49,858 bases of DNA from a virus. Shown piece after piece: positions 33,243 through 34,307 of this stretch. Each line of letters begins with the position of its first letter. The first letter of the stretch is position 1. The position numbers and the translations under genes are program-made. A model generated the notes under the pieces. That model made no database searches, was not told the origin of the DNA, and worked only from the letters and a program-made list of their open reading frames with translations. The stretch lies in UHGV virus genome UHGV-0134932, one strand, 5' to 3'.

Positions 33243-33471
33243 TAGTGCCGGTTACGGTTCCGGCCAGGCCTCTTCCTCAACGGGGTGTTCTCCTTACGGA
33301 CTACCGTTTATTGGTCGTTCCTGCGGTTTATGTTGTGAAGCCAGATGCTTATCTTCTGGTTGCTTCAAAGAGCTGCACTTCCTCACAACGGTAAGGGTAC
33401 TTCGTAGGGATTCGAACCCTCTGCCAAGCTCGGCGATCTCCGACGTCGCAAAATACCCTTACCTGTTGTGC

Positions 33472-33547
33472 TGGTGCCGATTAACGGACTCGAACCGCTG
33501 ACATCCTGCTTACAAGGCAGGCGCTCTACCAACTGAGCTAAACCGGC
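33472..33547 (-). tRNA. tRNA-Thr (UGU)
   Basis: 76-nt cloverleaf GCCGGTTTAGCTCAGTTGGTAGAGC...CTTGTAA...GGTTCGAGTCC...CGGCACCA. Confidence 0.88.
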
Positions 33548-33549
33548 AT

Positions 33550-33625
33550 TGGCGATGGTGGATGGATTTGAACCATCGACCCGTTGATTAACAGTCAACC
33601 GCTCTAACCGCTGAGCTACACCATC
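33550..33625 (-). tRNA. tRNA-Asn (GUU)
   Basis: 76-nt cloverleaf GATGGTGTAGCTCAGCGGTTAGAGC...CTGTTAA...GGTTCAAATCC...CCATCGCCA. Confidence 0.88.
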
Positions 33626-34279
33626 ACTTGCCGGGTACGTCTCCGGCGAGGGCTTCCACCTCCGTATGCTTTTCGGCGCACCGCGCCCTGGCTGCAATTC
33701 GGTAACAGGGGATGCATAACCCTGGCTTCCAGCGTGATTAGCGCTTTCAGCATGACGGGATATACCCGTAAATTCGTGGAACTGTACCCAAAGTGCTGTT
33801 AAGCACCGCTGTTACGCTGAAAAGAAGACGCAACAGGAAAGGACGCTGACCAACAGATGGCCCCTTCTCGTTCATCTGGTTAATCACACCAGCGCCCTTA
33901 CCTGTTGTGCCTCCCCGTTCCCTAATACACAGACGGGGACACTCTGCGGTCGATTTTTTGACGGGGGACGACTCATACCCCGTGGCGTCTGGTTTCTTAG
34001 GCCGCTACCATCATCAGATCATCGTTTGCATTTACTTTAATGGTCAGTTTCTAAACCGCCGCAAAGTCGCTAACCATGACGAAAACCCTGAAAAAAACGC
34101 CCACCCGAAGATGGGCAAACTGGAAGCTCGTAACGCACTTCGGCGTTGCCACTTAGGCGCATGGTCAACCTGGCAACTCGGTGGTTTGTCTGGGAGGACT
34201 AGGCCCAGCCATGCTTACCGCCGCGCCTGTCGCGGCTAACAGCTAAATCGCTCTATAAATCACGATTCATTGAGACGAT

Positions 34280-34307
34280 ATTACACTAATAAATTTATTA
34301 GAGCAAT
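34280..34307. promoter_or_regulatory. Overlapping pair of C1 operators (Op72-like) at the head of the tRNA/ban operon
   Basis: Perfect 17/17 AAATTTATTAGAGCAAT at 34291-34307 overlapping a 15/17 copy in opposite orientation at 34280-34296. Confidence 0.85.

Follow-up and report, generated by a model that had tools for sequence, protein, structure and literature searches.

The repeated 16-mer CCCTTACCTGTTGTGC in the region studied here is the 5' arm of two long imperfect hairpins, H1 and H2, and two further hairpins nearby, H3 and H4, are of the same kind. The window, which is the whole stretch of 49,858 nucleotides, is a phage P1-like genome, and the repeat lies in the untranslated, non-coding leader of its C1-repressed ban operon, transcribed from the minus strand. 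By their stems, all four hairpins are members of one RNA hairpin family. They are most likely RNA-processing signals and not attachment sites or hidden genes. We give a probability of about one half to the reading that they are RNase III-type processing hairpins in a read-through transcript that double as recombination joints.

Layout of the ban operon leader

The locus is 99.3-99.4% identical in alignment to P1 records, which annotate Op72ab, P1ban, two tRNAs and tciA. On the minus strand the order is operator/promoter, a leader RNA of ~180 nt with an intrinsic terminator, a conserved block, H1, tRNA-Asn, tRNA-Thr, H2, H3, H4 and tciA (Table 1). The operator pair described as Op72-like in the earlier note is an inverted repeat that carries the name Op72ab in the P1 record. 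The annotation of P1 (AF234172), transferred by alignment at 99.3% identity, gives a divalent operator Obanab/Op72ab and the -10 and -35 boxes of P1ban. ARAGORN and Rfam find three tRNAs in the window. A consensus scan found no internal sigma-70 promoter for the tRNAs, a result of little weight since the same scan missed the annotated P1ban. Rfam scores for GOLLD/ROOL-type large structured RNA, Y RNA (YrlA) and tmRNA were at chance level.

Table 1. Features of the ban operon leader, in the order of transcription
Feature	Position in the window	Strand	Basis and details
Op72ab (Oban), bivalent C1 operator overlapping the P1ban promoter, start of the ban operon transcript	34278-34309	-	Inverted repeat I2
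5' leader segment, homologue of the stretch just upstream of DicF in Qin-type dicBF operons	34141-34235	-	Sequence comparison
Intrinsic terminator (GCCCAUCUUCGGGUGGGC then U7)	34091-34117	-	Sole terminator-like site in 32700-34400
Highly conserved leader block (UUAGCGACUUUGCGG..UUUAGAAACUGACCA..AAAGUAAAUGCAAACGAUGA)	34019-34073	-	Alignment of relatives
H1	33829-33909 (RNA 33909-33829)	-	MFE -50.2 kcal/mol, z = -5.73; 5' arm holds the 16-mer copy 33895-33910
tRNA-Asn (GUU)	33550-33625	-	ARAGORN; Rfam tRNA 74.5 bits
tRNA-Thr (UGU)	33472-33547	-	ARAGORN; Rfam tRNA 72.9 bits
H2	33384-33470 (RNA 33470-33384)	-	MFE -42.6 kcal/mol, z = -5.48; 5' arm holds the 16-mer copy 33456-33471
H3 (33247-33148, CAACGUUGAG-type stem) with small flanking hairpin GUGAAUGCACAGGCUGAUGUGC	33128-33247	-	MFE -57.9 kcal/mol, z = -5.85; inverted repeat I1
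H4 ('hairpin A' of the earlier note)	32887-32970 (RNA 32970-32887)	-	MFE -37.1 kcal/mol, z = -4.80; inverted repeat I6
STnc100/PasD-like 5' UTR element just upstream of tciA	32778-32893	-	Rfam RF02076

The first ~100 nt of the leader are homologous to DNA upstream of DicF. The 5' leader segment overlaps the 'dicF-like region' annotated in P1, shares ~78% identity with the ydfC-dicF interval of K-12 Qin, and has a match in 4242 of 5426 E. coli genomes. It has hairpins in common with Qin, which include one CG to UA compensatory pair. The DicF sRNA family (Rfam RF00039) gave no match in 31000-35000 at E up to 10 (the bar of the model is 48 bits and the K-12 control scored 76.7 bits). The term 'dicF-like' denotes homology to the DNA upstream of DicF, and DicF itself is absent from the window.

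The terminator is kept in P1, P7, D6 and others, and homology to D6 starts there. It would end the leader RNA at ~180 nt, so that all that lies downstream would require read-through. The core of the conserved block is invariant in 7 P1-like variants, one of them only 82% identical overall, and the block is likewise found in a Klebsiella SSU5-like plasmid and, past tR', in the late leader of a lambdoid phage. The STnc100/PasD-like element forms the downstream limit of the non-coding array. Over positions 31-147 of the 206 in model RF02076 it scores 43.0 bits (E = 3.5e-7), short of the gathering score of 47, while its homologue in K-12 Qin scores 34.4 bits. It is homologous to DNA near dicB in lambdoid phages; in Qin it stands after DicF and before dicB, and in P1 before tciA.

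The ban leader and the Qin dicBF operon are alike in these two elements, and both belong to repressor-controlled early operons with an internal terminator. DicF is reportedly produced by RNase III- and RNase E-dependent processing. One lambdoid contig has a hairpin of our family in the position of DicF. Unlike Qin, P1 has no DicF but its own terminator hairpin in that place, followed by 1.2 kb of hairpins and tRNAs.

The 16-mer and its hairpin family

The 16-mer, which reads GCACAACAGGUAAGGG on the RNA strand, has exactly two copies in the window. The earlier note was right about the repeat, although its positions (33455-33470 and 33896-33911) were one base off. One copy abuts the 3' end of tRNA-Thr and a related third copy lies in H4 (AATGCTCTTACCTGTT at 32950-32965), both as had been described. 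Further copies were not found in the window at up to 3 mismatches, where 0.25 are expected by chance and 4 of 100 shuffles had at least two. A lone exact 16-mer pair in 50 kb is not very improbable. The pair can be called non-random because each copy forms the 5' arm of a hairpin of high stability (z = -5.7 and -5.5), and these hairpins belong to a covarying family. The proposal that the motif be sought in relatives gave a conserved structure: exact identity between H1 and H2 is specific to the lineage of the window and P7, and in D6-type relatives the H1 sequence is GCATAACAGGCAAGGG, with the opposite arm changed in compensation.

Modules were sought with regular expressions and a stem finder, and inverted repeats with a custom dynamic programme. 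The family stem was defined as 5' CACAACAGGUAAGAGCAUUG / 3' CAGUGCUCUUUCCGUUGUG, or as the covarying variant CACARCGNUNAG / CUNANCGYUGUG. Members have a basal stem of 19-21 bp, conserved and slightly irregular, and a hypervariable top of 35-80 nt. Irregular features of the stem are an A that bulges out behind CACAAC, a position 10 that is U-U or U-A, and a U-G wobble at position 18; the U-U mismatch is kept in 59 and the wobble in 51 of 72 stems, and the three inter-arm asymmetries persist in more than 70 distinct copies. The sequence of the stem is conserved well beyond the needs of pairing, with a nearly invariant 3' arm CAGUGCUCUUUCCGUUGUG. RNase III is not known to require such a stem sequence, and a sequence-specific partner may therefore be involved.

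All four hairpins of the window are on the ban operon strand. H1, which begins 181 nt downstream of the terminator, is a no-bulge variant with CCUGUUGCG as pairing partner. In 7 relatives its stem persists despite base changes, which are GU/GC/AU exchanges and one compensatory change of CG to UA, and H1 was the most frequent sequence in the second viral scan (16 loci). H2 and H4 fit the 16-mer-type stem consensus. H2 begins 1 nt past the CCA end of tRNA-Thr and has 21 viral matches directly 3' of tRNA-Thr. Its top is a tRNA-like minihelix, made of a 7-bp acceptor-like helix and a GGGUUCGAAUCCC T-arm with a canonical T-loop. As a complete tRNA this top was rejected: ARAGORN and the Rfam tRNA model do not recognise it, and only ~25 nt stand in place of the D and anticodon arms. 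The H2 module is identical in P1, D6 and others, while P7 and Ro157c2YLVW keep the arms and have the top replaced by an unrelated 41 nt. H3 is a CAACGUUGAG variant with three extra outer pairs; its stem type is also found in SSU5-like plasmids and viral contigs, and its flanking hairpin GUGAAUGCACAGGCUGAUGUGC also follows a module in a lambda-like contig. H4 was found at 15 viral loci.

Several observations indicate that the conserved structure is RNA. Among 31 distinct paralogue stems, 93.2% of positions are paired, against 80.8% in shuffles, none of 500 shuffles reaching the observed value. Changes on both sides affect 12 of the 21 stem pairs, and the slid controls gave 34-51%. There are 23 distinct modules at most 5 nt from a tRNA gene, 22 of them just downstream. 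Read on the tRNA strand, these 23 contain 421 Watson-Crick, 34 G-U and no A-C pairs, the G-U counts deriving from few subfamilies, with independent events well below 34. As the non-Watson-Crick pairs are all G-U on the tRNA strand and the stems covary, we conclude that the family structure is RNA. Orientation agrees between module and tRNA in 77 of the 82 16-mer-type matches with a tRNA within 1.5 kb. The suggestion of att-like sites is not supported, given this strand-specific pairing and covariation and the sense orientation of the modules in operons of unrelated phages.

The family is widespread in temperate Enterobacterales phages, namely P1-like and SSU5-like phage-plasmids and lambdoid prophages, and its members always face in the sense direction of their operon. 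Its palindromic stem pattern occurs at 90 viral loci, with real stems in 40 of 42 distinct matches; 596 Gb of genomes gave ~8 real stems, all from Enterobacterales, and ~23 stemless chance matches. Members often stand directly after the 3' end of a tRNA or a few bases past a regulated terminator. In lambdoid prophages the usual place is the interval from the Q gene to the lysis genes, 4-85 nt past a terminator U-tract. In 14 sampled lambdoid loci the nearest upstream gene was the Q antiterminator in 9 and a CI-like repressor in 3, with holin and endolysin downstream. There is no member in the K-12 DLP12 and Qin regions examined, so that published K-12 RNase III maps provide no evidence for those loci, and a Pantoea-type module had no match in 5,426 E. 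coli genomes. The put RNA of HK022 was also considered and rejected as a relative, the HK022 immunity and Q-holin regions having no family hairpin. The family is not in Rfam 15, and no description of it was found in the literature open to search.

Phage lambda has one module, at 44,787-44,862, five bases after tR', and this is the strongest helix between PR' and S. It belongs to the same family by sequence and structure: the 5' arm CACAACAGGUAAG is common to lambda, H1 and H2, and H4, whose arms are nearest to the lambda archetype, is identical to it in AACAGGUAAGAGCAUU / UGCUCUUUCCGUUG. Both phages have the hairpins in sense orientation in an untranslated leader, past an intrinsic terminator behind a regulated promoter. 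In contrast to lambda, P1 has four copies among tRNA genes, in an early operon controlled by C1 and not in a late operon controlled by Q, and H1 stands 181 nt after the terminator instead of 5 nt. As its title indicates, a study by Daniels, Subbarao, Blattner and Lozeron (1988, Virology 167:568; ref. 49 of PMC7547250) deals with RNase III processing sites in the Q-dependent lambda late transcript. Judging from that title, and from the 44,787-44,862 hairpin being the sole long helix in the leader, the lambda RNase III sites probably lie in this hairpin.

Processing signals and competing explanations

Two suggestions of the earlier note agree with these data. The region is indeed a long structured leader, non-coding and built of structured RNA modules. 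The idea of processing sites also fits, the repeat being an arm of hairpins of the lambda late leader type, for which RNase III processing appears from the title of the lambda study to have been reported. In the read-through transcript, host RNase III would cut the basal stem, so that the terminated leader, the tRNAs and the mRNA behind them come apart. The cut would expose the 3' trailers of the tRNAs to exonucleolytic trimming and set the ends of the flanking RNAs, and hence their stability, while the capped top could come free as a stable small RNA. In the DNA, the conserved arms would serve as joints for homologous recombination. Tops are swapped in P7, Ro157 and D6, tandem modules occur in one P1 isolate, and one relative has lost the H2-H3 interval with a breakpoint within the arms. 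With the conserved arms as recombination joints, the exchange of tops, whole modules and tRNA genes among relatives would be accounted for.

Two rival explanations concern protein coding and DNA. It is extremely improbable that the region encodes small proteins, either P1 Upl and Plp on the plus strand or minus-strand ORFs of 30-46 codons, with the repeat as a coding by-product. It is true that upl and plp are annotated here in P1 records and that plus-strand ORFs of 63, 125 and 110 codons are present. However, substitutions fall about equally at the three codon positions (12:8:9, 9:7:7, 6:6:5 and 7:9:10), gaps of 1, 2, 7 and 10 nt disrupt the frames in relatives, and plp overlaps tRNA-Thr on the opposite strand and is partly replaced by a tRNA-Ser gene in P7 and D6. 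On the minus strand, as the earlier note had observed, there is no ORF of 60 codons or more between the operator and the tRNAs: those from the operator pair to tRNA-Asn have only 30-46 codons, the 30-codon one losing its ATG by a 36-nt deletion and a 45-codon one being disrupted by a 2-nt deletion. A 104-codon TTG ORF that spans both tRNA genes and the plus-strand 110-codon ORF (33907-34239) have no third-position bias in relatives, where indels shift their frames. Conserved small proteins, which would have explained the conservation otherwise, are thus not seen, no ORF being conserved on either strand among relatives. Since upl and plp bear no sign of protein coding, their annotation in P1 records should be reconsidered. 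A DNA-level element is also very unlikely, that is, a MITE/REP-like palindrome or an attC-like single-stranded-DNA site that spreads into transcribed non-coding 'safe' sites and yields the RNA hairpin as a by-product. Terminal inverted repeats, a variable interior and several copies per genome would suit it, as would the occupation of classic moron-insertion sites, the tolerance of G-T pairs in folded single-stranded DNA too, and ends (..CACAAC / GUUGUG..) loosely like attC R''/R' cores. The presence/absence polymorphism with breakpoints at the arms fits mobility or homologous recombination. Against this, the arms covary rather than keep one transposase-binding sequence, orientation follows transcription in very different replicons, and the constancy of the three arm asymmetries points to a folded single strand with a defined sense. 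Dedicated transposases or integron integrases are not consistently nearby, and the flanks inspected have no target-site duplications. As an integron attC the module was rejected, its ends GCACAAC / GTTGTGA departing from the core RYYYAAC/GTTRRRY by one and two mismatches.

Two further explanations, both at the RNA level, concern the 3' arm and the tops. The 3' arm CAGUGCUCUUUCC resembles the rrn boxA region (CACUGCUCUUUAACAA) at 10 of its first 11 bases, and might be a boxA-like site that recruits NusB/NusE and gives Rho resistance over the untranslated stretch, with the 5' arm as a regulatory anti-boxA. A boxA likewise stands after the spacer tRNAs of rrn operons. The modules do lie in operons under antitermination control, within long stretches that are not translated; at wobble positions the 3' arm varies less than the 5' arm, and the U-U mismatch gives up one pair but keeps UGCUCUUU intact. 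We nevertheless consider a boxA/Nus element quite unlikely. NusB/E bind single-stranded boxA, whereas the motif lies within a helix of 19 bp and its partner strand is made before it; it lacks the AACAA part, and among the window hairpins H4 alone has UGCUCUUU, H1, H2 and H3 having GCGUCCUUU, GUACCCUUA and GUGUUCUCA. The information content of the two arms is similar (29.7 vs 27.9 bits), and the Q-modified polymerase in lambdoid late operons requires no boxA. A nut site, with single-stranded GCUCUUUAACAA or CGCUCUUA and then a boxB hairpin to which an N protein binds, was likewise rejected, UGCUCUUU occurring only in H4 and inside the helix; the small hairpins after the modules have loops of 6-7 nt, unlike boxB. 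In sum, CAGUGCUCUUU of the 3' arm agrees with CACUGCUCUUU in the boxA region of rrn and both occur in long untranslated transcripts beside tRNAs, but the P1 motif is base-paired, without the AACAA half and degenerate in three of four copies. The tops could also be the functional part, acting as decoy, mimic or regulator in an exchangeable position on a stem that serves as processing or stabilising scaffold. This is compatible with RNase III processing and, as an account of the modules, unlikely. Tops are hypervariable between modules, yet several are conserved in sequence across phage families: that of H2 in P1, D6 and, as a variant, in a lambdoid late leader, and the H3/H4 motif GUAACGGGNUCAUANCCCAAUCUAC in P1, an SSU5-like plasmid and a viral contig. 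H2 has the canonical T-loop and acceptor-like helix, and the UUCAUAU loop of H3/H4, closed by GGG/CCC and the only anticodon-like one, resembles on reading of the sequence the anticodon arm of the initiator tRNA-fMet. However, tRNA models do not recognise H2, tops beside tRNA-Asn and tRNA-Ser read as having no anticodon mimicry, and most tops are mutually unrelated, as unconstrained sequence would be. An antisense role of the H1-H4 tops was rejected, their complementarity to the rest of the ban-operon RNA being no greater than that of shuffled tops.

Where tops are conserved in their own right, as are the H2 minihelix and GUAACGGGNUCAUANCCCAAUCUAC in H3/H4, the released RNA may matter beyond the cut. 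A stem cut by RNase III could then liberate swappable apical RNAs, as the bacteriophage equivalent of the tRNA-linked pre-miRNA units of herpesviruses. Some of these RNAs would regulate host enzymes directed at tRNA, or defence nucleases, or serve them as decoys, with the arm-mediated swapping as an arms race; we hold this to be doubtful at best. The candidate cargos would be the H2 minihelix of acceptor and T-arm and, in H3/H4, the GGG-UUCAUAU-CCC loop with its likeness to an initiator anticodon.

Comparison with known systems and significance

RNase III-type processing hairpins would have counterparts in several known systems. T7 reportedly carries a repeated family of RNase III processing hairpins, and the T7/T3 signals (R0.3, R1.1 and others) mark off the functional units of a polycistronic phage transcript by irregular hairpins that recur and resemble one another, as here. 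In the metY-nusA-infB operon, RNase III reportedly cuts in a hairpin after tRNA metY and frees the tRNA; this cut right after a tRNA also decides the fate of the downstream mRNA. The P1/lambda family differs from both in a far more conserved stem, a hypervariable top and its presence in several unrelated temperate phage groups, and sequence similarity to them is not expected. Precursors linked to tRNAs are also comparable, namely the tRNA-pre-miRNA units that murine gammaherpesvirus 68 reportedly has and the 3' external transcribed spacer RNAs reported for bacterial tRNAs. In these too an RNA is fused to the 3' end of a tRNA, and tRNA processing defines one end of the second product. They belong, however, to different kingdoms and enzymes, and the hairpin product of P1 is only a putative functional RNA.

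The ban leader of P1 has long been annotated, with its operator, 'dicF-like' stretch and tRNA genes, and the locus itself is ordinary. What is new is the assignment of the repeat to a widespread hairpin family. The family connects the late leader of lambda and early operons of lambdoid phages with the P1 ban operon and with tRNA islands in SSU5-like phage-plasmids. Its stem sequence is conserved with unusual strictness, whereas the top varies freely. As RNase III sites, if such they are, the hairpins would explain how tRNAs embedded in phage mRNA operons are released. Furthermore, processing hairpins that double as recombination joints would, if this reading is true, explain the region as a hot spot of mosaicism.

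The ban operon leader

The 1.56 kb around the repeat match phage P1 records at 99.3-99.4% identity and P7 at 95%. In the P1 record AF234172 the order on the minus strand of the window is dmt, Op72ab (annotated there as a bivalent C1 operator) with the promoter P1ban, a 'dicF-like region', tRNA-Asn, tRNA-Thr, tciA-tciB-tciC, tRNA-Ile and ban, with the hypothetical ORFs upl and plp ('putative lipoprotein') on the opposite strand. From this annotation, the repeat region is the leader of the C1-repressed ban operon. The earlier note had reported a 16-mer present twice; exactly two copies were found, 33456-33471 and 33895-33910, each a single base away from the position it gave. 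The first copy abuts tRNA-Thr, which ends at 33472, and a related copy, in the 'hairpin A' of the note (H4 here), is at 32950-32965.

The same note saw no minus-strand ORF of 60 codons or more from the operator to tRNA-Asn, and the ORFs there have merely 30-46 codons. The small-ORF scan it proposed showed that they are broken in an alignment of 7 P1-like variants (82-99% identical) by a deletion of 36 nt, which takes away one start codon, by a 2-nt deletion and by further frame-shifting indels. On the plus strand, the 110-codon leader ORF and the upl- and plp-like ORFs lack third-position bias in the relatives compared and are gapped there by 1, 2, 7 and 10 nt. In addition, plp overlaps tRNA-Thr, and a tRNA-Ser gene substitutes for part of it in P7 and D6. 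Broken frames, missing codon bias and the tRNA overlap and replacement mark the region as non-coding apart from its tRNAs; upl and plp give no sign of being protein-coding.

Past the promoter, the leader opens with ~100 nt (about 34235-34141) that share ~78% identity with the stretch directly upstream of DicF in Qin-type prophages, a stretch that 4242 of 5426 E. coli genomes carry. Both have hairpins in common, including one compensatory pair. DicF is absent from the window (no Rfam match, against 76.7 bits in K-12), and P1 has a terminator of its own in its place. A leader RNA of ~180 nt is therefore expected, and the tRNAs, the tci genes and ban require read-through. This terminated RNA (34091-34270, minus strand), whose 5' domain is homologous to the pre-DicF segment, is a candidate sRNA like lambda 6S RNA or StxS, the likeness being its origin at a repressor- or antitermination-controlled promoter. 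The sub-threshold match to STnc100/PasD, a prophage sRNA family, is the 5' UTR of tciA, downstream of H4, and is homologous to DNA beside dicB in many lambdoid phages. In K-12 Qin the STnc100-like element directly follows DicF and precedes dicB; compared with this dicBF layout, the P1 tRNA/hairpin array is inserted between the terminator and the STnc100-like 5' UTR.

A leader block is found again past tR' in a lambdoid late leader (L155, 5545-5465) and in a Klebsiella SSU5-like plasmid (L011, 3010-3088); its conservation is in sequence, not in predicted structure. Two IncY P1-like plasmids (NZ_CP148475 and CP057803) carry a 1329-bp element exactly between 34051 and 34050 (..GGTTTAG / AAACTGACC..), inside this most conserved block of the leader. 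Its sole gene is tnpB, an IS200/IS605-family RNA-guided nuclease (1672-3000 in both L006 and L007), and the leader downstream of it is merely 82% identical to the window.

Coordinates of features in and around the leader array
Feature	Position	Strand	Details
Leader block UUAGCGACUUUGCGG..UUUAGAAACUGACCA..AAAGUAAAUGCAAACGAUGA	34019-34073	-	~55 nt; near-invariant in all P1-like variants
Terminator	34117-34091	-	stem-loop + U7
H1	33909-33829	-	-50.2 kcal/mol, z = -5.7
H2	33470-33384	-	-42.6 kcal/mol, z = -5.5; starts one base past tRNA-Thr CCA end
H3	33247-33148	-	z = -5.9
H4	32970-32887	-	z = -4.8
Apical motif GUAACGGG(G/U)UCAUAUCCCAAUCUAC	33199-33223 (H3), 32920-32944 (H4)		written on + strand
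upl-like ORF	32932-33123	+	antisense to hairpin array
plp-like ORF	33124-33501	+	antisense to hairpin array
STnc100/PasD-like element	32778-32893	-	43.0 bits, sub-threshold (gathering score 47), E = 3.5e-7

A family of RNA hairpins

On the transcribed strand the 16-mer reads GCACAACAGGUAAGGG, and its two copies serve as the 5' arms of the long imperfect hairpins H1 and H2; H3 and H4 are of the same kind. Downstream of each of the four come GUG(R)UGAAUGC and a small hairpin. The 7 leader variants keep the H1 stem, with G-U, G-C and A-U pairs replacing one another and one C-G pair changed on both sides to U-A; the central U-U mismatch becomes C-A and stays unpaired.

A motif search across relatives, also proposed in the earlier note, found the arms kept in P1-like relatives and the same modules in the tRNA islands (1.1-1.6 kb) that SSU5-like phage-plasmids from E. 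coli, Salmonella, Klebsiella and Citrobacter carry. Scanning IMG/VR with the palindromic pattern CACARCGNUNAG...CUNANCGYUGUG gave 90 loci and 42 distinct sequences, and in 40 of these, 5 or more of 8 pairs are Watson-Crick at the stem positions left free by the pattern. In 596 Gb of species-representative genomes it matched 31 times, about 8 times with a stem (Rahnella, Pantoea, Erwinia, Ewingella and two MAGs); the remaining, stemless chance matches served as negative control. Pairing holds in 93.2% of cells across 31 distinct stems (slid controls, 34-51%); shuffles gave 80.8%, and none of 500 came as high. Of 21 pairs, 12 changed on both sides. The outer 12 positions are fixed in part by the pattern; the free positions 8, 10 and 13-21 carry the covariation.

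A second viral scan with the 16-mer type (AACAGGYAAGRG...CUUNCC(N)GUURYG) returned at least 164 matches at no fewer than 120 loci, with at least 91 distinct sequences; at least 21 matches lie directly 3' of tRNA-Thr. Among the matches listed, 77 of the 82 that have a tRNA up to 1.5 kb away are co-oriented with it, and the commonest stem is CACAACAGGUAAGAGCAUUG / CAGUGCUCUUUCCGUUGUG, with a bulged A, a U-U mismatch (59/72), a U-G wobble (51/72) and mutually unrelated tops of 35-50 nt.

For 23 distinct modules the distance to a tRNA gene is no more than 5 nt (Ser-UGA 12, Asn-GUU 10, Arg-UCU 1), and 22 of them lie immediately 3' of the gene. When only the tRNA sets the strand, the outer 20 positions of their stems comprise 421 Watson-Crick, 34 G-U, 0 A-C and 5 other pairs; these modules form few subfamilies, so independent G-U events number fewer than 34. 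The G-U/A-C asymmetry, complete here, is echoed in modules with no tRNA neighbour (30 vs 2). The modules form an RNA hairpin family with a conserved stem and a variable top; within operons they are sense-oriented, and they sit past regulated terminators and at the 3' ends of tRNAs.

Exchange of tops and lambdoid late operons

Among the relatives compared, arms are conserved and tops exchanged, and recombination breakpoints fall in the hairpin arms. The H2 top is an unrelated 41 nt in P7 and Ro157c2YLVW, and in one P1 isolate the two H2 versions stand in tandem. In P7 and D6 the H4 top differs as well, and there is an added tRNA-Ser with a family hairpin directly 3' of it; Ro157c2YLVW has an additional tRNA-Tyr, and a D6-like plasmid lacks the interval between the H2 and H3 3' arms. 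The tRNA set also varies among close P1 relatives, in which Ser (UGA; L003/L005), Tyr (GUA; L004, L008, L009, L013) and Arg (UCU, replacing Asn; L008) come and go beside conserved Asn and Thr.

The H2 top (33403-33450, minus strand) resembles a tRNA missing an arm. Its parts are a 7-bp acceptor-like helix (UAUUUUG/CGAAGUA, including two G-U pairs), a canonical T-arm (AGGG-UUCGAAU-CCCU), CCCU at the NCCA position and just ~25 nt where the D and anticodon arms belong; neither ARAGORN nor Rfam calls it as a tRNA. A variant occurs in the lambdoid late leader (L155, 5345-5275). The H3 and H4 tops both contain GUAACGGGNUCAUANCCCAAUCUAC, and their apical motif recurs in an SSU5-like plasmid and in a viral contig. 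Closed by three G-C pairs, their 7-nt loop (N-U-CAU-A-N) looks in sequence like the initiator tRNA-fMet anticodon arm, a resemblance alone.

Half of the 16-mer-type matches, among those listed, have no tRNA nearby (contigs of 40-55 kb). In 14 such loci sampled for gene context, the nearest same-strand upstream gene is the antiterminator Q in 9 (four PHROG families) and a CI-like repressor in 3, and holin and endolysin lie downstream at the lambdoid loci. The order there is a PR'-like promoter, a short leader, an intrinsic terminator, the module 4-85 nt past the U-tract, a GUGAAUGC small hairpin and later the holin gene. The L155 leader combines the P1 leader block with two modules, one H2-like and bearing the T-arm top, the other H4-like, so the non-coding array as a whole is a mosaic unit shared by P1 and lambdoid late operons.

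In lambda, the archetype module lies at 44,787-44,862, five bases past the tR' (6S RNA) terminator, and no other helix between PR' and S comes close to it in strength. For the Q-dependent late transcript, sites of RNase III processing are the topic of Daniels et al. 1988, as cited in PMC7547250, and the lambda module probably corresponds to a known RNase III site. The annotated lambda orf-64 (44,621-44,815) spans 6S RNA and tR' and enters the 5' arm of the module, an overlap that makes it doubtful as a gene.

Possible processing of the modules

Host RNase III would cut the basal stem, severing terminated leader, tRNAs and mRNA from one another. Pointing to this are the helix length of 19-27 bp, the lambda homologue in a leader with reported RNase III processing, and no single-stranded RNA beside the CCA end for RNase E. 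RNase III cuts after tRNA metY, processes DicF and acts on the T7 processing signals, and these are precedents. However, the strict conservation of stem sequence, its three irregularities included, is not a neat fit to this reading and suggests a sequence-specific partner. One candidate pointer to such a partner is the likeness of the 3' arm to rrn boxA (CAGUGCUCUUU vs CACUGCUCUUU), although the motif is buried in the helix and degenerate in 3 of the 4 P1 copies.

Rfam 15 has no family for the module, and no description was found in the full-text literature searched. The P1 locus was already annotated; the family-level picture, with its breadth, tRNA-gene linkage, cassette-like exchange and conserved irregular stem, appears new. 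The conserved tops (the acceptor/T-arm minihelix of H2 and GUAACGGGNUCAUANCCCAAUCUAC of H3/H4) are a hint that the released RNA may matter too; no cis target was found for them. Cleavage by RNase III may also allow trimming of tRNA 3' ends, and would determine where the flanking RNAs end and how stable they are.
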